Of a stretch of 64,000 bases of DNA, positions 7,344 to 54,240 are shown one piece after another. The DNA comes from Ruminococcus sp. (GTDB lineage: Bacteria > Bacillota > Clostridia > Oscillospirales > Acutalibacteraceae). The first letter of the stretch is position 1, and each line of letters opens with the position of its first letter. The stretch spans positions 14,041 through 78,040 of the forward strand of contig SFCS01000006.1 in assembly GCA_004558485.1 (NCBI GenBank), written 5' to 3'. The notes beneath the pieces were generated by a model. The model did not search any database and was not told the DNA's origin. It saw nothing but the letters and a program-made list of their open reading frames with translations. A program made the position numbers and the translations under genes.

Positions 7344-7477
7344 CGTATCTTCCTTTCGTTCGGTGATGGGTGTGCGCAACAAGGTGAGTATAGCATATTC
7401 TTCCCGAAATTACAAGAAAATGTTGCACAAACCGCGCCGGTGGTGTAAAATACATCTATCAAAGAGGGGGTGGCGTC

Positions 7478-9604
7478 ATGTTTGAAAACGCTAAATGGAT
7501 CACGCGCACGCCGTCGGTGCGCTGGGGCTTTGAGGACGATCCGGCAAAGCTGCCGCCGTCGCCGTATCTCGCCCGTACCTTCACGGTGAAAAAGCCGCTC
7601 AAAAGCGCGACGCTCTCCGCGGCGGGACTGGGACAGGCGGCATATTTCTTAAACGGTGCGCGTCTGCCGGACAGCCACCGCCCGACCGATCCGACCGCCC
7701 CCGTGAGGGCGGTCATCTACCGTTCCTTTGATCTGTCGGCGCTGCTGCACGAGGGGCAAAACCGTTTCGGTGCCATGCTCGGCAACAACGGCTATAACGA
7801 TCCGCGTGTTGTCCGCTTTCGCGGTGTGCCGATGCTCATTGCGCAGATCGACCTTGTCTATACCGACGGCACGACCGATTCGGTCGTCACCGACACCGCC
7901 TTTAAGACCGCCGACGCGCCGGTTCTGTTCAGCTTGCGCCGCTGCGGCGAAAAATATGACGCAAGAAGGGAGATCGACGGCTGGTGTGCCGCGGGTTTTG
8001 ACGACAGCGACTGGGAACATGCGCACATCTGCGCAGGGCCGGGCGGCGTTTTGCGCCCGACCGTCTGCCCGCCGGAGCGCATCGTGCGCCGCATCGCGGG
8101 GAGCGAGATCGCAAAGGGCGTTTTTGATTTCGGTGAAAATGTCAGCGGACATGTCGCCGTCACCGTGCGCGGCAAGTGCGGCAGCGAGATCGAGGTGCGC
8201 TATGCCGAGCTGCTCGCCGCCGACGGTCAGCATGTTGATCAGGGGAATATTTTAGCCGACATCTATAAGCCGATGGCGCACAAGGATGTCTATATTTTGA
8301 GAGGCGACGGCGAGGAGCATTATGCGCCGCTTTTTTCCTACCACGGATTTCGGTATGCCGAGGTGACGGGTGATTTCGAAAGCGTCGCGCTCACGGCGGA
8401 GGTGGCGCACACCGACCTTGCCCCCGCGGCGGCGTTTTCCTGCGATAACGGAACGCTTGCGGCGCTGCACGACATCACGGTGCGCTCCGTGCTCACCAAC
8501 TGCCACGGTGCACTCACCGACTGCCCCCACCGCGAGCAAAACGAGTGGACGGGCGACGGGCTGCTCAGCGCCGAGGCGGTGTGTATCGCCTTCGATGCCT
8601 ATGACTTCTTTTATGAATGGATGCAGAAATTCAAGGAGGATCAGCTGCCGGACGGGCGGCTGCCCTGCATCATTCCGATGAAAAACGGCGTGTGGGAGAC
8701 GGCGTTTGCCAACGGCCCCGACTGGGACAGCGCCATTTTCCATATCCCCTATTATGCTTACCGCTACAGCGGCGACCGCCGCATCGTGGATCTCGTGTGG
8801 GAAAATATGGAGCGCACACTGCGGCACTTTGCCACGCTGTCCGAAAATTGCCTTTTGCGTGCGGGCGTGGGCGACTGGGCATCCTGCGGTGCGACCTGTG
8901 ACAAGCAGATCACCGACACTGCCTATTATGCGATCGACGCGCGCATGATGGCGGAGATGGCGGCAGCGACCGGCAGAGACCCCGCGCCCTTTGCGGCTCT
9001 TTTTGCCCGTATCCGCGATGATTTTCGCGCCGCCTATGTGAAAAACGGGGAGCTGACCGACACACACCAAACGACGCTTGCCGCCGCGATCTTTGCGGGC
9101 TTTCTCACAGAAAAAGAAAAAAAGGCGGCGGGCGATCGCCTTGCCGCCGCACTTGCCGCGGCGGATCACCATTTCATCTGCGGGGTGCACGGACTGCGCT
9201 TTATATTTGATGCGCTGTGTGACACCGGCCACGTGCAGGAGCTGTTTGACACGGTGGTAAACCCCGCCTATCCCGGCTTCGGCAACATCGTTGCGCGCGG
9301 GATGACGACACTGCCGGAGTGGTTCAACTACGGTGCGTCGCAAAATCACCATTTCCGCAGCCCTGTGGACGCCTGGCTGTTTAACTACCTTGCGGGTATC
9401 CGCCCCGTCGGCTTCGGCATGGAAACGGTGCGCATCGCCCCGCAGTTTGTGCGCGGGGTGACGACGCTCAAGGCGACGGTGCACGGCGTGACCGTTTCCT
9501 ATGACGAGAAGACCCTCACGGTGCAAAGCCCCGTGCCGTTCACGCTTTGCCTTAACGGGGAAGAGAAGACATATCCTGCGGGAGAATGGCAGGTGGCGCG
9601 CTGA
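7478..9604 (+). CDS. alpha-L-rhamnosidase (GH78), cytoplasmic
   Basis: GH78 six-hairpin catalytic region with conserved DCPHREQNEWTGDG. 708 aa, no signal peptide. Promoter TTGCAC-17-TAAAAT upstream. Confidence 0.75.
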   Translation: MFENAKWITRTPSVRWGFEDDPAKLPPSPYLARTFTVKKPLKSATLSAAGLGQAAYFLNGARLPDSHRPTDPTAPVRAVIYRSFDLSALLHEGQNRFGAMLGNNGYNDPRVVRFRGVPMLIAQIDLVYTDGTTDSVVTDTAFKTADAPVLFSLRRCGEKYDARREIDGWCAAGFDDSDWEHAHICAGPGGVLRPTVCPPERIVRRIAGSEIAKGVFDFGENVSGHVAVTVRGKCGSEIEVRYAELLAADGQHVDQGNILADIYKPMAHKDVYILRGDGEEHYAPLFSYHGFRYAEVTGDFESVALTAEVAHTDLAPAAAFSCDNGTLAALHDITVRSVLTNCHGALTDCPHREQNEWTGDGLLSAEAVCIAFDAYDFFYEWMQKFKEDQLPDGRLPCIIPMKNGVWETAFANGPDWDSAIFHIPYYAYRYSGDRRIVDLVWENMERTLRHFATLSENCLLRAGVGDWASCGATCDKQITDTAYYAIDARMMAEMAAATGRDPAPFAALFARIRDDFRAAYVKNGELTDTHQTTLAAAIFAGFLTEKEKKAAGDRLAAALAAADHHFICGVHGLRFIFDALCDTGHVQELFDTVVNPAYPGFGNIVARGMTTLPEWFNYGASQNHHFRSPVDAWLFNYLAGIRPVGFGMETVRIAPQFVRGVTTLKATVHGVTVSYDEKTLTVQSPVPFTLCLNGEEKTYPAGEWQVAR

Positions 9605-10479: not shown

Positions 10480-11141
10480 TCAAGGCCTGCATTTTCGACA
10501 TGGACGGCACCGTGTCCAACACCATCAACAGCATCACCTATTTCGGCAACAAGGCGCTCACGGAAAACGGCCTTTCCGGTTTTGCGCCCGACGACTATAA
10601 ATACATGGTCGGCAACGGCGCGGACATTTTGGTGCGGCGGATGTTTGTGAAAAACGGCTGCACCGACGAGGCGCTGTATAAAAAAGTGCTGAAGGAATAT
10701 AATGAAAGCTATGACAACGATTTTCTGTATCTCACCGCGCCCTATGACGGCATCCTGCCGCTGCTCGACGATCTGCGCGCGGCGGGGATCAAAACGGGCG
10801 TGCTTTCGAATAAGCCGCACTCCACAACGCTGAAGGTGGCGGATGCGCTGTTCGGCGATCGGCTGGATCTCTGCTTCGGGCAGAGAGAGGGGAAACCGAT
10901 CAAGCCCGATCCGACGGTGTTAAAGGAAATGCTTTCGATGCTCGGCATCACGCCCGACGAGTGCCTCTATGCGGGCGACACCGCGACCGACATGCAGACC
11001 GGAAAGGGCGCGGGCTGCTTCACCGTCGGCGTGCTTTGGGGCTTCCGCACCGAAAAGGAGCTGCGCGACAACCGCGCGGACGCGATCGTGGCAAAGCCCG
11101 CAGAAATTTTCAAACTGATAAAGGAGAAAAACGGCAAATGA
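10476..11141 (+). CDS. HAD-superfamily hydrolase (phosphoglycolate phosphatase-like)
   Basis: HAD motif I FDMDGTV at the N-terminus; motif IV GDTATDMQTG. Confidence 0.7.
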   Translation: MIKACIFDMDGTVSNTINSITYFGNKALTENGLSGFAPDDYKYMVGNGADILVRRMFVKNGCTDEALYKKVLKEYNESYDNDFLYLTAPYDGILPLLDDLRAAGIKTGVLSNKPHSTTLKVADALFGDRLDLCFGQREGKPIKPDPTVLKEMLSMLGITPDECLYAGDTATDMQTGKGAGCFTVGVLWGFRTEKELRDNRADAIVAKPAEIFKLIKEKNGK

Positions 11142-12094
11142 AGGTCATGATGATCGGCTGCGGCAGGTGGGGCTCGCTCATCGCGTGGTATCTTTCCACC
11201 CTTTCTCACGAGGTGACGCTGTACGGACGGGAAAGCTCCGCCCATATGCAGCGGTTTTTGCGGGAGCGAAAAAATGATCTGCTGACGCTGCCGTCGTCGG
11301 TGACGCTGACGACGGGGCTTGCGGCGGCACGGGACGCCGAGGTGATCCTCATTTCCGTTCCTGCGCAGTCGCTGCGCGCGCTTTTGCGCGAGCCGACGCT
11401 GCGCGCGCTGCGGGATAAAACCTTCGTTTTGTGCATGAAGGGCATCGAGGTGGAAACGGGGATGCGGCTGTCGCAGGTAACTGCCGCCGAGGTGGATCGC
11501 TCCAATCACATCGCCGTGTGGCTCGGTCCCGGGCATGTGCAGGATTTCTATGCCGGCATCCCCAACTGCATGGTCATCGACAGCGACGAGGACGCGGTGA
11601 AATGCCGCCTCATCGACGCATTTTCCGGCAAGCTCATCCGATTTTATTACGGCGATGACATGATCGGCAACGAGATCGGCGCGGCGGCGAAAAATGTCAT
11701 CGGCATTGCCGCAGGCGTGCTGGACGGGTTGGGGCTGTCCACGCTCAAGGGTGCGCTCATGTCCCGCGGAACGCGCGAGGTGGCAAGGCTCATCGCCGCT
11801 ATGGGCGGCAACGAGCGCTCGGCATACGGGCTTTGCCACCTCGGCGACTATGAGGCGACGCTGTTTTCACCCTACAGTCACAACCGCGCCTATGGCGAAG
11901 GTCTCATCACCGGCGCGCCGATGACAAAGCTCGCCGAGGGACATCCGACCGCGGCGGCGCTGCACAAGCTGGCGGCGGAAAACGGCGTGGAAATGCCGAT
12001 CGTTTCGGCGGTCTACAGCATCCTGTATGAGGGTGCTGCGCCGAAGGAGGCAATCGACCGCCTTTTTGAGCGCCGCCAGGGACAGGAGTTTTGA
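11138..12094 (+). CDS. gpsA: NAD(P)H-dependent glycerol-3-phosphate dehydrogenase
   Basis: N-terminal Rossmann fold MKVMMIGCGRWGS. GpsA-like C-terminal domain (GNEIGAAAKNVIGIAAG). Confidence 0.75.
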   Translation: MKVMMIGCGRWGSLIAWYLSTLSHEVTLYGRESSAHMQRFLRERKNDLLTLPSSVTLTTGLAAARDAEVILISVPAQSLRALLREPTLRALRDKTFVLCMKGIEVETGMRLSQVTAAEVDRSNHIAVWLGPGHVQDFYAGIPNCMVIDSDEDAVKCRLIDAFSGKLIRFYYGDDMIGNEIGAAAKNVIGIAAGVLDGLGLSTLKGALMSRGTREVARLIAAMGGNERSAYGLCHLGDYEATLFSPYSHNRAYGEGLITGAPMTKLAEGHPTAAALHKLAAENGVEMPIVSAVYSILYEGAAPKEAIDRLFERRQGQEF

Positions 12095-24704: not shown

Positions 24705-24849
24705 CTTTGCAGAAAAATACCGTAGGCACTCCGGCATACGGACGGACAGGCGGACTGCGGCGCACGGAGACAGCTGCTTAATGCTGCTCGGTTCCCCGCC
24801 TGACATGGTTCACAGCGCACCGTCGCGCAGGACCCATCCGTCCGTATGC
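24705..24849 (-). ncRNA. ffs: signal recognition particle RNA (small 4.5S-like form) with its own promoter
   Basis: Minus-strand promoter TTGACT-17-TATAAT. Long terminal helix (ccggcatacggacgg / ccgtccgtatgccgg). Domain IV motif AUGUCAGGCGGGGAACCGAGCAGC matches GUCAGG-NCCGGAAGGAAGCAGC. Ends in UAUUUUU just before the dnaX RBS. Confidence 0.75.
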
Positions 24850-25344: not shown

Positions 25345-26226
25345 ATGCAACTGCGCACCGATCTGGCGCTCGAAGCGGTCGCCATGGCGGGGGAAACACT
25401 GGGGGAGGCGGATCGCACGCTGTTCGAGCAGGAGCGGGCGGGCATCACCGTCACCCGCCTCACGGTCAAAAGCGAAAGGGCGGCGGCGGTGTATGACAAG
25501 CCGTGCGGAGAATATGTGACGCTGGCGCTGCCGCCGCTCTCGGACGACGAAAAAAAGCTGCTCGAGGCGGCGACGCTGGCAGCGGAGGAGATTGGCCGCT
25601 TTTTGCCAAAGGAGGGGACGGTGCTGACGGTGGGGCTGGGCAACCGCGCCATCACGCCGGACGCGCTCGGTCCGCGCGCGGCGGATATGGTGCTTGCCAC
25701 CCGCCACATACAGGGTGAATTTGCCCGCAGTGTGGGGCTCTCCGACCTGCGCCCGTCGGCGGTGGTCGTGCCGGGGGTGCTCGGACAGACCGGCACGGAG
25801 AGCGGGGAGCTGGTGCGTGGGGTGTGCGGCGTGGTGCGCCCCGCCGCCGTCATCGCCGTCGATGCGCTTGCCGCCCGCAGCGTGGCGAGGCTCGGCTGCA
25901 CGGTGCAGGTATCGGACACCGGCATTGCCCCGGGTGCGGGCGTCGGCAACCATCGACTGCCGCTGTGTGCGAAAACGCTCGGCGTGCCGGTCATTGCGGT
26001 CGGCGTGCCGACGGTGGTGGACGCGGCGACGGTCGCCGCCGATTGCGGCGCGGACGCGGAAACGGTCGAGCGCATTGCGCCTGCGGCAAGACGCCTGGTG
26101 GTGACGCCGCGGGAGATCGATCTGCTCATCGGCAGAGCCGCCCGCCTTGTCGCGGCGGCGATCAACGCCGCCCTGCAGCCCGACTATGCACCGCTCGAGC
26201 TGATTTCTCTGGCGCTGGATTCATAA
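25345..26226 (+). CDS. gpr: germination protease (GPR endopeptidase)
   Basis: Aligns to B. subtilis Gpr (RTDLA…, VGLGNRAITPDALGP, LVTRH). Conserved rpsT-gpr neighbourhood. Confidence 0.85.
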   Translation: MQLRTDLALEAVAMAGETLGEADRTLFEQERAGITVTRLTVKSERAAAVYDKPCGEYVTLALPPLSDDEKKLLEAATLAAEEIGRFLPKEGTVLTVGLGNRAITPDALGPRAADMVLATRHIQGEFARSVGLSDLRPSAVVVPGVLGQTGTESGELVRGVCGVVRPAAVIAVDALAARSVARLGCTVQVSDTGIAPGAGVGNHRLPLCAKTLGVPVIAVGVPTVVDAATVAADCGADAETVERIAPAARRLVVTPREIDLLIGRAARLVAAAINAALQPDYAPLELISLALDS

Positions 26227-26245
26227 AATCCGGCGCACACACCAT

Positions 26246-26283
26246 GCAAATTTCCCTTGCCGTCCCCTGACGATGGGCGGCAA
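26246..26283. terminator. bidirectional terminator between gpr and mnmE
   Basis: Hairpin CCCTTGCCG…CGGCAAGGG with flanking T/A runs. Confidence 0.5.
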
Positions 26284-26325
26284 GGGGAATTTGACGGAGG
26301 ATGGGAAGCTTTGTTTCCCGTCCTC

Positions 26326-27699
26326 CTACTTTCCGACACAAAATCTGCGGAATACCTCGTCCACCACCGCCTCGGTGGTGCGCTCTCCCGTGAGGGACAA
26401 AATGGCGGCGACGGCATCGTCGATGCACACCGACACCGCATCCGGCGTCATGCCGATCGCCATGGCGTTTTGCGCCTCCCTGACGGCGGCAAGCGCATTT
26501 TCGGCGCATACACGCTGTCGTTCGGTCTGCAAAAGCGCCGTGTCCGGCTGCAGGCGGCAAACGCCGGTAACCTTCTCCACCGCCGCCCTCAGGCGGTCGG
26601 CGCCGTCTCCCGTTTTTGCCGACAGGAGCACGACGGCGGGCACGGCAGCGGCGATCTCGTCGACCTCGATCACCGTGCCGATATCCGTTTTATTGATGAC
26701 GGCGATCGCGGTTTCATTTTTCAGAGAGGCAAGCAGCGCGCGATCCTCCGCCGTGAGCGGTGCGCCGCCGTCGAACACCGCCAGCACCAGCGCCGCGTGT
26801 GCCATACGGCGGCGTGCCTTTTCGACACCGATCGCCTCAACGGCGTCGCCCGTGTCCCGCAGCCCCGCCGTGTCGGACAGGCGCAGCGTGACCTCGCCCA
26901 GCCGCACCGTTTCCTCCACGATGTCGCGGGTCGTGCCCGCGATGGGGGTGACGATGCTGCGCTCGCAGCCGGCAAGCAGGTTCATGAGCGTGGATTTGCC
27001 GACATTGGGGCTGCCGACGATAACGGTATCGATGCCCTCACGCAGCACCCGCCCCGCGTCGAAATCGGCGAGCAGCGCCGCAAGCGTCTCTTCGGCGTCG
27101 GCAAGGGTGGCGGACAGTGCCGCATCCGAAAGGTCGGGGATGTCGTCGTCGGGATAGTCAACAAAGGCGGAAAACTGCGCCGCCGTCGCAAGCAGGGCGC
27201 TTTTCACGCCGTCAAGACGGCGAGAAACGCTCCCTTCCTTTGCGGCGAGGGCGGTCTTGGCGGCAAGACTGCCGTCGGCGGCAATGAGCGACATGACCGC
27301 CTCCGCGCCGGAAAGATCGAGCTTGCCGTTTTCAAAGGCGCGGCGGGTAAATTCCCCCGCCTCTGCGGGACGCGCGCCCGCTGCATAGAGCGCGCGCAGC
27401 GTGCGGCGCAGCAGATACACGCCGCCGTGCAGCGACAGCTCCACGGTGTCCTCGCCGGTGTAGCTGTGCGGCGCGCGGAAAACGAGCGCCACACATTCGT
27501 CGATGACGCCCTCTTTGTCCGCCACATGCCCGAAGGCGGCGCGCCAGCCGCCGAGGGCGGCAAGCGGCTTTCCCGACACCGCACGGAAAACGCGGTCGGC
27601 AGTGCCGATCGCGTCGCTGCCCGAAATGCGCAAAACGCCCAGTCCCGCGGGCGCGGCGGGGGTGGACAGCGCAGCGATGGTATCCCTTTGCAAATTCAC
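26326..27699 (-). CDS. mnmE: tRNA uridine-5-carboxymethylaminomethyl(34) synthesis GTPase
   Basis: MnmE N-terminal domain, G-domain (GSPNVGKSTL, DTAG, NKTD) and C-terminal CxGK. GTG start 27699 after AAAGAGAGGG. Confidence 0.9.
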   Translation of the reverse strand: MNLQRDTIAALSTPAAPAGLGVLRISGSDAIGTADRVFRAVSGKPLAALGGWRAAFGHVADKEGVIDECVALVFRAPHSYTGEDTVELSLHGGVYLLRRTLRALYAAGARPAEAGEFTRRAFENGKLDLSGAEAVMSLIAADGSLAAKTALAAKEGSVSRRLDGVKSALLATAAQFSAFVDYPDDDIPDLSDAALSATLADAEETLAALLADFDAGRVLREGIDTVIVGSPNVGKSTLMNLLAGCERSIVTPIAGTTRDIVEETVRLGEVTLRLSDTAGLRDTGDAVEAIGVEKARRRMAHAALVLAVFDGGAPLTAEDRALLASLKNETAIAVINKTDIGTVIEVDEIAAAVPAVVLLSAKTGDGADRLRAAVEKVTGVCRLQPDTALLQTERQRVCAENALAAVREAQNAMAIGMTPDAVSVCIDDAVAAILSLTGERTTEAVVDEVFRRFCVGK

Positions 27700-38450: not shown

Positions 38451-39398
38451 ATGAAAATTGTGTTATTGGATGTGGACACCGTAACAAACGGCGATGTGTC
38501 GCTTGCGCCGATCGAAAGGCTCGGCGAGGTCGTCGGCTACCCGCTGTTGCCGCCCGAAAAGGTGGCGGCGGCGATCGGCGACGCCGATGCGGTGGTGTGC
38601 AACAAAACGGAGATCTCCGCCGATGTGATCGCTGCCTGCGAAAGCCTCAAATTCATCGGCGTGTTTGCAACGGGATATAATAACATTGACCTTGCGGCGG
38701 CGAAGGCGCGGGGAATCACGGTGTGCAATGTGCCGGGCTATTCCACCGACGCGGTGGCACAGCATGTGTTTGCGATGGTGCTGTCCCTTGCCGGCAGTCT
38801 CGCCGCCTATGACCGCTCGGTGCACGCGGGCGACTGGGTGCGGGAAAAGCGCTTCACCTATTTTCCGTATCCGCTGCACGAGCTGGCGGGAAAAACGCTC
38901 GGTATTTTCGGCTGCGGCGCGATCGGCAAAAAGGTCGCGGCGATCGGCAGGGCGTTCGGGATGGACATTCTGGTCTCGACCCGCACGCCGGCGCACTGCC
39001 CGGGAGAGACCTGCTGCACGCCGGATGAGTTGTTTGCGGCAGCGGATGTGCTGACCTTCCACTGCCCGCTGACGCCCGAAACGCGCGGCATCATCAACCG
39101 CCGCACCCTGTCGCTGATGAAACCGACGGCACTGCTCATCAACACCGCGCGCGGCGGCATCATGGACGAGGTCGCGGTGGCGGATGCGCTGCATGCGGGC
39201 GTGATCGCGGGTGCGGGCATCGATGTGCAGATAAAAGAGCCGATGGCGGCGGACAATCCGCTGCGCACCGCGCCGCACTGCATCCTCACCCCGCACATCG
39301 CGTGGGCGCCCTTTGAGACGCGGGTGCGGCTCATTGACCGCGTCGCCGAAAATCTTTCTGCGTTTCAAAACGGAAATCCCATCAACACCGTTATATGA
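38451..39398 (+). CDS. D-isomer-specific 2-hydroxyacid dehydrogenase (glycerate/hydroxypyruvate reductase-like)
   Basis: NAD motif GIFGCGAIGKKVA and catalytic R/E/H region. Start ambiguous (GTG 38430, ATG 38442, ATG 38451). Confidence 0.75.
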   Translation: MKIVLLDVDTVTNGDVSLAPIERLGEVVGYPLLPPEKVAAAIGDADAVVCNKTEISADVIAACESLKFIGVFATGYNNIDLAAAKARGITVCNVPGYSTDAVAQHVFAMVLSLAGSLAAYDRSVHAGDWVREKRFTYFPYPLHELAGKTLGIFGCGAIGKKVAAIGRAFGMDILVSTRTPAHCPGETCCTPDELFAAADVLTFHCPLTPETRGIINRRTLSLMKPTALLINTARGGIMDEVAVADALHAGVIAGAGIDVQIKEPMAADNPLRTAPHCILTPHIAWAPFETRVRLIDRVAENLSAFQNGNPINTVI

Positions 39399-39413
39399 TA
39401 AAGGAGAATATGT

Positions 39414-40079
39414 ATGAACACTGCCATGACCACAAAAGCCCTTTTCGACCTGTCCCACACACAGGCGGCGCCGCTGCTCGAAAAGCACAGCTATCCCTGG
39501 GAGGCGTTGTCCGAGATCGGCGCGTTCATTTTGACGCTTGGGAAAACGCTGTCGCCCGATGAATATGACCACCCCGCCGAGACGGTGTGGATCCACAAGA
39601 CGGCAAAGGTGTTCCCCTCCGCCTATATCGGTGAAAATGTCATCATCGGTGCGGACACGGAGGTGCGGCACTGTGCGTTCATCCGCGGCAACGCGCTGGT
39701 GGGTGCGGGCGCTGTGGTGGGCAATTCCACGGAGCTTAAAAATGTCATCCTGTTCGACCATGTGCAGGTACCGCATTATAACTATGTCGGCGACTCGATT
39801 TTAGGGTATAAGTCCCACATGGGCGCCGGCTCGATCACCTCCAATGTCAAGAGCGACAAAACGCCGGTCACCATCCGTGCCGATGAGCGGGTGGAGACGG
39901 GGCTCAAAAAGATGGGCGCGGTGCTCGGCGACCGTGTAGAGGTCGGCTGCGGCAGCGTGTTGAATCCCGGTACGGTCATCGGCAGCGGCAGCCAGATCTA
40001 TCCGCTGTCGGCGGTGCGCGGCTTTGTCCCCGCGAACAGCATCTATAAGCATCGGGGCGAGGTCGTGGAGAAACGGTAA
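39414..40079 (+). CDS. left-handed beta-helix (hexapeptide-repeat) transferase family protein
   Basis: Repeated [LIV]G.N..[IV] hexapeptides throughout the C-terminal two-thirds. No nucleotidyltransferase domain. Confidence 0.55.
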   Translation: MNTAMTTKALFDLSHTQAAPLLEKHSYPWEALSEIGAFILTLGKTLSPDEYDHPAETVWIHKTAKVFPSAYIGENVIIGADTEVRHCAFIRGNALVGAGAVVGNSTELKNVILFDHVQVPHYNYVGDSILGYKSHMGAGSITSNVKSDKTPVTIRADERVETGLKKMGAVLGDRVEVGCGSVLNPGTVIGSGSQIYPLSAVRGFVPANSIYKHRGEVVEKR

Positions 40080-40133
40080 TGCACTCACTGCATACAATTC
40101 GCGTGTTTTTTGCGCCTTGCGCAAATTGATCGA

Positions 40134-40356
40134 GATTTTTTATAATCAGCGTACCTACCACGCAAATGCTCCGTGCAGTCCGCAGACTGCACGGAGCATT
40201 TGACCAAGGAAGCGCTCCGCACTTCCTTGCGCCCGCGCGCAACAAGATCATTTTATAATCGGCGCACCCACTGCGCGCAAATACGCCACGCTGCTGCGTG
40301 GCGTATTTGACCAAGGAAGCGTGGGAAGTGCAGAGCACTTCTCACGCTTCCTTGCG
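40134..40356. repeat. tandem pair of about 100-nt structured repeat units (two-hairpin modules)
   Basis: Each unit is TTTTATAATC(A/G)GCG…AAAT, a 10-14 bp perfect hairpin, ATTTGACCAAGGAAGCG, then a second hairpin closing on CTTCCTTGCG. Unit A spans 40134-40230 and unit B 40250-40356. Confidence 0.6.
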
Positions 40357-40420
40357 TTGACAATTATCATGTTTTGTGCTACACTGATTCCGTTCATTTC
40401 AAAGCAAGGGCGGACGAAGC

Positions 40421-41050
40421 GTGAAGGTTTGGTTTGAGAAATATCGACATTTACTGCTGCTGCCGCTGCTGTTCGGCACAGTATCCTTTTTATATTTTCT
40501 GACATCGCACGGGGACGCTGCCGTTTTGGTGCATGTGCCGCTTGACGACAGAATCCCGTTTGTGCCCGCATTCATTTTGCCGTATGTGCTGTGGTATGCG
40601 TATGTGCCGCTGTTGATGCTGACGGTCGGCGTGCGGGATAAACAGGCGTTTTATCGCCAGTGCGCGACGCTGTTTTCCGGCGTGGTGCTGTGCTTGCTGG
40701 TGTTCATCTTTTTCCCGACCGCGATCGATTTCCGACCGACGGCGGAGGGGAAGGGGCTGTGGCTTTGGATCTGCCGCATCGTGTTTGCCAACGATCTGCC
40801 GCGCAATGTCTGCCCGAGCCTGCACTGCTTTGAGGCGGTCATCGCGCACCTGACTGCGTTTCACCATCCGTCGCTGCACAAGCGGCATGGGTGGCGCGGG
40901 CTGTCCGCCGTTGCGGCGGCATGCATCTGCGTTTCCACTGTGTTTGTCAAGCAACATTCGGTCGTGGACGCCGTGTGCGGCGTTTTGTTGGCATTTGCCG
41001 TGTATGGACTGTTCTATGGCGTATTGTGGCGCGAAAAGCGCGCACGTTGA
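40421..41050 (+). CDS. PAP2-like integral membrane protein
   Basis: Six TM helices with PSLH…, …H…D motifs resembling the PAP2_like_2 family. GTG start after AAGGG. Confidence 0.55.
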   Translation: MKVWFEKYRHLLLLPLLFGTVSFLYFLTSHGDAAVLVHVPLDDRIPFVPAFILPYVLWYAYVPLLMLTVGVRDKQAFYRQCATLFSGVVLCLLVFIFFPTAIDFRPTAEGKGLWLWICRIVFANDLPRNVCPSLHCFEAVIAHLTAFHHPSLHKRHGWRGLSAVAAACICVSTVFVKQHSVVDAVCGVLLAFAVYGLFYGVLWREKRAR

Positions 41051-41067
41051 GAAAGGACGGCGGTTTT

Positions 41068-41760
41068 ATGAAGGGACAATGGGGACTTATGCTGCTCATC
41101 GGCATCGTGCTGCTCATTTTGGCGGCGCTTATCATCCTGCTGTCGGTGCGGGGGATCACCTTCCGCGTCAAAAAGGTTGCCTGTGTCGGCGACAGCATCA
41201 CGAAAAACGGCTATTGGGAGGATAACCTCCAAAAATCGCTTTCCACGGAGCGGTATGAGGTCGCGGGGTTCGGCGTGAACGGCGCGACGGCGCTTGCCGC
41301 CGGCATCGACAACGATACCTCCGAAAAGGGATATACGCTGCAGCCGGAATATGACGACAGTCTTGCCTATCAACCCGACATCGTCGTCATCATGCTCGGC
41401 ACGAACGATTCGAAGCCCTTCAACTGGGAGATGCCCGACAACGCCAACGCAGCGCAGTTTCGCGCCGATCTCACGGCGCTCGTCGAGAGCTATAAGGCAT
41501 TGAAGACCAAGCCGCGCATATATCTTGCGCTGCCGCCGACGGCATTTTCCGACTTTGCGCAAATTCAGAACGAGACCGTTGAAAGCGACATCATCCCCGC
41601 CATTCGCGAGGTGGCGGCGGCAACGGGCGCCGCGGTGATCGACACCCACAGCGTCAACAAAGATGCACAGGATGATTTCATCGATGGCGTGCATCCGTCC
41701 TCCGACGCGGGCAGAAAGCTGCTGGCGCAGACGGTGGCAAACGCGATCCTCGGGAAATAA
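41068..41760 (+). CDS. SGNH/GDSL hydrolase family protein (membrane-anchored)
   Basis: N-terminal TM, then GDSIT block I, a GxND block and DGVHP block V. Confidence 0.7.
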   Translation: MKGQWGLMLLIGIVLLILAALIILLSVRGITFRVKKVACVGDSITKNGYWEDNLQKSLSTERYEVAGFGVNGATALAAGIDNDTSEKGYTLQPEYDDSLAYQPDIVVIMLGTNDSKPFNWEMPDNANAAQFRADLTALVESYKALKTKPRIYLALPPTAFSDFAQIQNETVESDIIPAIREVAAATGAAVIDTHSVNKDAQDDFIDGVHPSSDAGRKLLAQTVANAILGK

Positions 41761-51879: not shown

Positions 51880-52075
51880 AAACACCCTCCGATCTTACAA
51901 AGTCCGACGCCCGCACATGGGCGGCGCTTTGTCCCACGGAGGGAAAACGCCGTATGTACAGTGGGATGCGGCATGTGAACCGCAGCCGCCCGCCCGCGGC
52001 CTTTCGTCCGCGCGGCAACTCCCCGTCCGCGCGGCACTGGTGGAAACTCCACACGCTCACATGCCTACTCTGTAC
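51880..52075 (-). ncRNA. THF (tetrahydrofolate) riboswitch with translational expression platform
   Basis: Minus-strand leader AGAGTAGGCATGTGAGCGTGTGG…GCCGCGCGGACGAAAGGCCGCGGGCGG matches the THF consensus AGAGUAGG…GCGUUAAGUG…CGCGGAACGAAAGCCGG. A downstream CCCTCCGTGGG can pair with the RBS GGAGGG. Promoter TTGCAA-17-TATACT. Confidence 0.55.
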
Positions 52076-53824: not shown

Positions 53825-54240
53825 GAAAGCCGCTCCGATGGGAGCGGCTCAGACTGTCAAAAAAGTCCGCAGGACGCAAAAGCGTATTCACGCGAAAGGA
53901 CATCTGCAAAAATTTCAGTGAACAAAAGAAGCGTTTCTGCGAAACGCCCGCTTTTGCTGTCGGCGTCAACCGCCCCCTGTCGTATACACATACGCCGACG
54001 GGGGCGGTTTCCTTGCTCCTGCGGTTTTTAGACAGCCTCCCAGTGTGTCAAAAAAACAAGTTTTTTGACACACTGAGCCGCTCCGATGGGAGCGGCTTTT
54101 TATGACAAAAATTGCCAAAATCGGTCGCGCGGCGGAGGAAAAAAACCGCAAAGTTTACGATTTGTAAATTCCACTTGTTTTTTGCTGCAGGGTAGTGGTA
54201 TACTGGTATTGTTAAAGATTTAAGTAGAGTGGAAAATTAT
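53825..54240. repeat. about 415-bp hairpin-dense non-coding region bounded by a 22-nt direct repeat
   Basis: AGCCGCTCCGATGGGAGCGGCT occurs at 53828-53849 and 54067-54088. Between the copies lie GCGTTTC-tgc-GAAACGC, a 13-bp stem CCGCCCCCTGTCG…CGACGGGGGCGG and a perfect 15-5-15 palindrome CAGTGTGTCAAAAAA-acaag-TTTTTTGACACACTG (54031-54065). Confidence 0.6.

Follow-up and report, generated by a model that had tools for sequence, protein, structure and literature searches.

Units A and B, two tandem hairpin-rich units in the spacer between an LbH (hexapeptide) transferase gene and a PAP2_3-like membrane protein gene, are read here, with modest confidence, as copies of a lineage-restricted, low-copy, mosaic, hairpin-rich interspersed intergenic repeat. 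The unit is about 95-125 bp long and consists of an AT-rich box, a small hairpin (P0), a first long hairpin (P1, CAAAT...ATTTG), a TTTGAC(C) linker, and a second hairpin (P2); units follow gene 3' ends, sense to that gene, and form head-to-tail arrays. The family occurs at three or more loci and its copy number differs among close strains; entire hairpin modules have been gained or lost at short direct repeats, and the hairpins remain paired while their sequence changes. In kind the family is ordinary, comparable to BIME, BOX, or MIRU elements, and it is not a riboswitch. The literature on this group yielded no description of the family, none of its members matches an Rfam family, and to our knowledge it has not been described before. 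Throughout, the window is the whole stretch of DNA that was analysed (64 kb), and plain coordinates refer to it; other genomes and contigs are given by their L numbers where they need to be told apart.

Architecture of units A and B

The LbH transferase gene (39414..40079, + strand; open reading frame [ORF] with Pfam Hexapep and LbH_EIF2B matches) lies upstream of the array and the PAP2_3-like gene (40421..41050, + strand; ORF, 209 aa) downstream. The product of the latter scores 25.9 bits against Pfam PAP2_3, slightly below the 27-bit cut-off, and its homologues have PF01569 and PF14378. The array begins 27 nt past the LbH transferase stop codon, earlier than the initial annotation had placed it, with a degenerate "empty" unit (40106..40134, + strand) from the hairpin catalogue, which is made up of a T-run, a P0-type hairpin TTTGCGC-ctt-GCGCAAA, and TTGATC, and has neither P1 nor P2. 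The same "empty" module, GCGCAAATTGACC, is also present in L002, L014, and L015.

Unit A (40136..40231, + strand; covariance model match 79.7 bits) comprises the AT-rich box TTTTTTATAATC (40136-40147), the small hairpin P0 (40149-40163), P1 with an 18-bp perfect stem (40163-40202), the linker ATTTGACC (40198-40205), and P2 with 11 bp and one C.A mismatch, followed by CG (40205-40229). It is separated from unit B by the A/B junction (40232..40250, + strand; CCCGCGCGCAACAAGATCA), at the position of which L015 carries CCCGCGCGCAAATTGACCGAGA, the remnant of an "empty" unit. Unit B (40251..40356, + strand; covariance model match 55.1 bits) has its box at 40251-40262, P0 at 40262-40276, P1 with a 14-bp perfect stem at 40278-40309, the same linker ATTTGACC at 40305-40312, and P2 with 20 bp and one G.T, again followed by CG, at 40312-40354; an inner hairpin GGGAAGTGC-aga-GCACTTCTC is nested within this P2.

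Both units thus show one order of elements, AT-rich box, P0, P1 (CAAAT...ATTTG), GACC linker, and P2 (CAAGGAAG...CTTCCTTG), the third small hairpin P0 (GCGYA-N5-7-TGCGC) sitting between box and P1 in each, while the inner hairpin sequences of unit A differ from those of unit B. Sequence and hairpins are as the initial annotation described them when it recognized two consecutive units of shared architecture with differing hairpins. The direct repeats between A and B are a 26-nt TTTTATAAT box region (spacing 113, 81% identity), a stretch of 28 nt with ATTTGACCAAGGAAGCG at its end (spacing 107, 86% identity), and an exact CTTCCTTGCG; the 17-mer linker ATTTGACCAAGGAAGCG occurs exactly twice, for a chance expectation of 0.21 even with up to three mismatches allowed. 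Arm complementarity is 100% for P1 of both units (18 bp in A, 14 bp in B), 91% for the 11-bp P2 of A, and 95% for the 20-bp P2 of B. Folding of the 227-nt array against shuffles gave z = -15.1 for the + strand and z = -10.3 for the - strand. Overall identity between the two units is only 64%, and Tandem Repeats Finder reported nothing for the pair because the copies are too diverged and contain indels.

A third unit between gpr and mnmE

The element had been reported from nowhere else in the window, but a profile built from the units recovered a third one at 26217-26326, + strand, with an nhmmer E-value of 6.6e-8 and a score of 77.8 bits from covariance model R1. This unit (26220..26326, + strand) occupies the entire 99-nt spacer between the convergent genes gpr (spore protease; ORF, 25345-26226, + strand) and mnmE (ORF, 26326-27699, - strand). 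Its box TTCATAAAATCC (+ strand) overlaps the gpr stop codon and is followed on the same strand by GGCGCACACACCATGC and AAAT, by P1 (26247-26293; TTCCCTTGCCGTCC...GGGCGGCAAGGGGAA, 19 bp with two U.G), by the linker TTTGAC between P1 and P2, and by P2 (26296-26326; GGAGGATGGGAA...TTCCCGTCCTCC). The layout matches that of A and B, both hairpins have other sequences, and the fold reaches -63.9 kcal/mol (z = -8.4). At gpr-mnmE the unit or array is the sole sequence between the two convergent stop codons, and no other terminator is found there.

Searches of the 64-kb window by nhmmer, hairpin descriptor, and covariance model returned no fourth copy, and an HMM of the 5' box alone added none, its match at 8370 lying inside a coding region. 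For a classic interspersed repeat the copy number is low, with two loci in the window, and this tells against the repeat reading. In the window's own lineage the gpr-mnmE spacer is constant at one unit (97-99 nt) in 10 strains. As a separate observation, comparison of 26247-26326 with L057-L066 shows two positions of the P1 left arm that alternate between T and C opposite an invariant G (U.G <-> C-G), and one position of P2 that is a hot spot, seen as T.G, A.G, A.A, and C-G.

Copy number in related strains and a third locus

In close strains the LbH/PAP2 spacer holds one to three units. L008, L010, and L011 are the same as the window, with two units, and L009 and L030 have two units plus an 86-nt two-hairpin module with a 9-bp direct repeat, CTCACTGCA, on both sides. 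In L002 (the same as the contig of L023) a canonical terminator after the LbH gene is followed by one "empty" unit (GCGCAAAT|TGACC, without hairpins) and one full unit; L014 has the terminator as in L002, one full unit, and one unit without P1. In L015 the terminator is precisely deleted between two ACTTTTT repeats, and one empty and three full units are present. Short repeats bound both the terminator deletion of L015 (ACTTTTT, twice) and the extra module of L009 (the 9-bp repeat).

The 86-nt module, which the window lacks, stands just past the stop codon of the LbH gene (2587-2672 in L009; also in L030); 17 nt of it, the CCTCTTTTCACAGAGGG hairpin, are shared with L031 at the equivalent position. 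The canonical LbH terminator of L002 and L014, GTGCGGGAAGTGC-ttt-GCACTYCCGCAC with T5, is also missing from the window lineage, and its core GGAAGTGC...GCACTTCC is the P2 core.

Larger arrays were found in the gpr-mnmE spacer of ten strains of a sister lineage, whose Gpr proteins are identical to one another and 95% identical to that of the window. Their spacers measure 162-445 nt and hold about one to four head-to-tail units, short ones of 98 nt and long ones of 126 nt; in the long units the left arm of P1 is interrupted by an extra hairpin, TTTTGCATCTTTG-ttt-CAAAGATGCAAAA. N-runs lie inside the array in two of the ten assemblies (L035 and L038, about 10975-11210).

A third genomic context is provided by L031, a metagenome contig with two tandem units after a short-chain dehydrogenase (SDR) gene that is not related to the other flanking genes; the units lie convergent with a small ORF. 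All units seen at LbH/PAP2 and in the gpr-mnmE strains are in direct orientation. Unit orientation is that of the upstream gene at three of three loci, and at two of the three the units stand between convergent genes.

These further loci bear on another explanation of the pair, in which terminator and promoter sequences of the spacer were duplicated in tandem on the spot and there is neither a family nor a function. In its favor, the P2 core GGAAGTGC-N3-GCACTTCC is also that of the canonical LbH terminator in L002 and L014, and the A/B junction ACAAGATCATTTTAT resembles, by eye, the promoter spacer ACAATTATCATGTTTTGT. Homologous units of the same layout at gpr-mnmE and in L031, and the 77.8-bit score of the 26-kb unit, argue against it; local duplication as the whole account, the outcome that the initial annotation had named as its own refutation, is largely refuted and hardly credible.

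The reach of the family was delimited with further searches. A strict motif-plus-P2 pattern gave one match in the species-representative genome UMGS1163; in genome and metagenome contigs the same scan returned mostly chance hairpins, with real units only in L002, L030, and L031. Since P2 is not the same at other loci, a strict scan of this kind misses part of the family. No genuine units were found in viral contigs (two pattern scans) or plasmids (distant blastn). Units are absent from a further ~20 kb of the sister lineage (L045), and the SDR locus of L045-L050 is likewise without them. The SDR of L031 has no exact match, and L044, its closest long-contig homologue (85% identity over part of the protein), has no units in the 12 kb around the gene. 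PAP2_3 orthologues of ~60% identity and a Gpr relative of 71% identity have different neighbours and no units. Deep conservation of the units with their flanking genes was rejected on these distant PAP2_3 and Gpr relatives.

Mobilization in trans by a transposase, as a MITE or PATE, was also weighed. The family is dispersed over several loci, and the 9-bp repeat CTCACTGCA flanking the 86-nt module of L009 and L030 looks like a target-site duplication; deletion between repeats explains that repeat equally well. The absence of copies from viral contigs and plasmids, the head-to-tail arrays, the low copy number, and the lack of terminal inverted repeats, by inspection, in the single-copy unit 26220-26326 speak against mobilization, and the MITE was rejected as very improbable. 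An integron attC site was rejected by inspection as well, there being no R''/R' core sites and the flanking genes being core housekeeping genes.

Conservation of hairpin structure

Pairing was assessed for the 16 outer pairs of P1 in alignment A2, which comprises 13 distinct units and spans the three loci. Of the cells in these pairs, 94.2% can pair, as against 83.1% after shuffling, and both sides have changed in 7 of the 16 pairs. The covariation score is 0.249, against 0.098 in shuffles, a value reached by none of 500 shuffles and compared with a maximum of 0.055 in slid controls; this test overstates significance because the units are paralogues related by duplication. Compensatory change with preserved structure, which the initial annotation had read from two copies, recurs in this wider set, and its proposed count of further copies and covariation in relatives has yielded extra loci, variable arrays, and covariation in P1. 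Intrastrand template switching can keep perfect palindromes in the absence of selection on RNA.

The 5' arm of P2 is purine-rich and its 3' arm pyrimidine-rich, and pairing is kept with unrelated sequences at different loci (AAGGAAGCGC, GGAGGATGGGAA, GAAGGGCGGGGAC, and GCAGGAAGCAT). The single-stranded linkers CAAAT and TTTGAC are conserved across loci, and a TAnAAT-like box (TATAAT, TAAAAT, GTAAAT) stands 16-18 nt before AAAT in units of different loci. Conservation of the linkers and the box exceeds what a neutral palindrome needs, and could reflect an RNA or protein-binding function. Mismatches on the + strand were counted by hand as about ten G.T to four A.C, cases that are not independent and a difference that is not significant; the excess of G.T leans weakly toward RNA of the + strand.

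Promoters, terminators, and Rfam families

A consensus scan of 39000-41500 returned one promoter-like site, a predicted sigma-70-type promoter of the PAP2-like gene at 40357..40385 on the + strand (TTGACA-17-TACACT, matching the consensus at 10 of 12 positions, the -10 being preceded by TG). L002, L014, and L015 retain this promoter, and in every strain examined the last unit ends at CTTCCTTGCG, abutting the -35 hexamer TTGACA. Because the predicted promoter lies 3' of the array, the units would not be a leader or riboswitch of the PAP2-like gene.

The TATAAT-like box itself varies among units (TATAAT, TAAAAT, TATATT, TATATC, TATAAC, GTAAAT), and the promoter scan was empty within units, with no -35 or TG partner for the box. 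TATAAT/TTGACC was accordingly rejected as a promoter because of its spacing (~46 nt across P2 and 10 nt in empty units), the variability of the hexamer, and the negative scan, in agreement with the initial annotation, which had not taken it for a canonical promoter.

An intrinsic terminator was taken to be a GC-rich hairpin with a U-tract (5 T or more in 8) immediately after it. No site was called on either strand at 40080-40356, and no U-tract follows P1 or P2 on the + strand, so that any termination by these hairpins is putative; the initial annotation, too, had noted the lack of a terminator T-tract. The only - strand terminator call came from the sister lineage, whose long-type units show TTTTGC after P1 when that strand is read, a terminator-like arrangement for mnmE. 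A canonical terminator separates the LbH gene from the array in L002 and L014, and its presence ahead of the array in these two strains suggests that the array is not required at LbH/PAP2.

The Rfam scan that the initial annotation had proposed matched no family: none reached threshold at LbH/PAP2, the 26-kb unit, the L034 array, or L031, and the best match at the array, Leu_leader on the - strand (35.7 bits against a threshold of 50), reflects generic hairpins only. In the whole window the only matches above threshold were a THF riboswitch (51957-52074, - strand; 74.9 bits) and a small SRP RNA (24741-24839, - strand; 67.1 bits).

Each unit might alternatively be, or encode, a functional structured RNA, either an sRNA transcribed from its own TAnAAT box or an RNA derived from the 3'-UTR of the upstream gene, with a P0-P1-P2 fold in which the SD-like purine arm of P2 (AAGGAAG, GGAGGA) is sequestered by an anti-SD-like partner. 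The position of the hexamer 16-18 nt before AAAT at different loci, the covarying hairpins, the linkers conserved across loci, the mismatches compatible with G.U, and folding z-scores of -8 to -15 speak for such an RNA. Against it, array-internal units have TATATC, TATAAC, or TATATT, in the first two of which the key last T of the -10 is lost; the -35, the TG extension, and a + strand terminator are lacking; one to four copies vary freely, with hairpins present or absent, which is unusual for a selected RNA gene; no Rfam family matches; and the mismatch asymmetry is not significant. We regard this reading as fairly unlikely. The initial annotation had offered a functional RNA or a structured regulatory or mobile repeat: the structured repeat is borne out by more loci, variable arrays, and compensatory change, and the functional RNA is not supported, given the lack of an Rfam match, a box that is not conserved as a -10 and has no -35, the place of the array upstream of the sole good promoter of the PAP2-like gene, and the terminator that stands before the array in two related strains.

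It is unlikely, too, that the units are a structured RNA module (P0-P1-P2 fold, conserved single-stranded CAAAU/UUUGAC linkers, SD-like arm masked in P2) that is tandemly amplified and deleted to tune termination, insulation, or flanking expression. If true, the module would be an RNA device that varies in copy number in the manner of phase variation, and no such device has yet been described in Clostridia.

A regulatory array acting at the DNA level, with binding sites or cruciform-prone palindromes upstream of the PAP2-like -35 and a copy number that tunes or phase-varies expression, would fit the invariable end of the last unit at CTTCCTTGCG next to TTGACA and the variation in copy number among strains; BOX modules have been reported to stimulate or inhibit downstream genes (PMC3049150). 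The same family, however, lies between the convergent gpr and mnmE stop codons, where there is no promoter to regulate, and is in a convergent setting in L031 as well, and more distant PAP2_3 orthologues have no units. The distance between P2 half-sites ranges from 3 to 23 nt, a poor fit to a dimeric protein site, which was rejected on this spacing. A DNA-level array is distinctly unlikely.

Proposed origin and effect of the arrays

Under the preferred reading, an interspersed hairpin repeat, arrays would grow and shrink by unequal recombination or replication slippage between units. Such exchange, together with deletion at short repeats, is suggested by four features: P2 of unit A is a hybrid whose left arm is GCGC-type and whose right arm is GCAC-type; empty units occur; a hairpin is nested in P2 of unit B; and deletions are bounded by repeats. 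Pairing of the arms would be kept either by selection for the hairpin or by intrastrand template-switch correction of quasi-palindromes.

The effect of the units is most likely passive, to judge by analogy with REP/BIME, BOX, and SPRITE: placed at the upstream transcript's 3' end or beyond it, very stable hairpins would halt read-through or 3' exonucleases, and would insulate a neighbouring promoter or convergent gene. A role at the 3' end or in insulation fits gpr-mnmE, since nothing else lies between the two stop codons. If the hairpins terminate or insulate, array length could modulate read-through into the membrane phosphatase gene.

The host belongs to an uncultured gut Oscillospiraceae lineage, in which such repeats are little studied. 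Strain-variable arrays could serve as VNTR-type markers and for strain tracking in metagenomes. The arrays break or collapse short-read assemblies, as the N-gaps in two of ten assemblies show, and they are likely false positives in riboswitch and small-RNA searches because they mimic covarying RNA structure.

Other hairpin elements and variable sequences

Another hairpin-rich spacer lies at 53825-54238 in the window, where AGCCGCTCC-gatg-GGAGCGGCT occurs twice (53828-53849 and 54076-54097) and flanks ~225 nt with further long palindromes, for example at 54041-54075; neither nhmmer nor the covariance model found kinship between this spacer and the unit family. In a distant relative (PAP2_3 of ~61% identity), a different hairpin element of ~75 nt, TTCGGGGACACAGC...GGATAACTGTA...GCTGTGTCC, which has no Rfam match, immediately precedes the PAP2_3 start; L016 (2820-2990) and L018 (330-500) have it twice in tandem, and L017 (720-790) has it once. 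In L032-L041, strains with identical Gpr, the called DnaX (dnaX, ~7370-9422) has lengths between 536 and 596 aa, a spread that points to a variable repeat or a stretch of low complexity within the gene.

Comparison with known repeat systems

The intrinsic (bidirectional) terminators of the window resemble the units in that P1 is a GC-rich stem between AAAT and ATTT, like an A-run, stem, and T-run. They differ in that the T-tract of the unit is only 3 nt, none being called by the + strand scan, and in that ordinary terminators share no 5' boxes or linkers between loci.

In Mycobacterium tuberculosis, the MIRU/VNTR minisatellites are intergenic repeats of ~50-100 bp, set head-to-tail at several dispersed loci, and their copy number varies with the strain (PMC3635867). 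The units described here are likewise arranged head-to-tail at several loci and polymorphic in copy number among strains. MIRUs are not built of long perfect hairpins, and many carry small ORFs that overlap the flanking genes. The unit periods found here (98, 107-113, 120, 126, and 140 nt), by contrast, are mostly not multiples of three, and the units have no conserved ORF.

BOX elements of Streptococcus pneumoniae have the structure boxA-boxB(n)-boxC, in which the number of boxB modules varies, and the interspersed repeat SPRITE resembles a terminator hairpin (PMC3049150). By analogy only, the units share with both a modular, intergenic, and strongly folding character, and with BOX a tandemly repeated module whose number varies between strains, one to three and about one to four units at the two loci here. 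BOX and SPRITE are transcribed together with adjacent genes, whose expression they are thought to influence (PMC3049150). BOX differs in having more than 100 copies per genome, against two loci in 64 kb here, and in the pairing of its terminal modules; in the present family it is the whole unit, not an inner module, that repeats, and P0, P1, and P2 are local hairpins. Unlike SPRITE, the units have no U-rich tail on the + strand.

In the REP/BIME (bacterial interspersed mosaic elements) of enterobacteria, REPs are 20-40 nt long, occur in hundreds of copies, often in alternating orientation (REPIN), and are linked to RAYT transposases through a conserved 5' tetranucleotide. The units differ from REP/BIME in being all direct and, over the 64 kb of the window and the further ~20 kb of the sister lineage, low in copy number, with no GTAG-like signal seen. 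REP/BIME are known to protect mRNA 3' ends, to attenuate read-through, and to bind proteins (PMC3479197, PMC3184786). The likeness, again one of analogy, lies in palindromic units joined by short conserved linkers (CAAAT and TTTGAC(C) here) in combinations that vary among strains, and in placement, both being found after gene 3' ends and between convergent genes.
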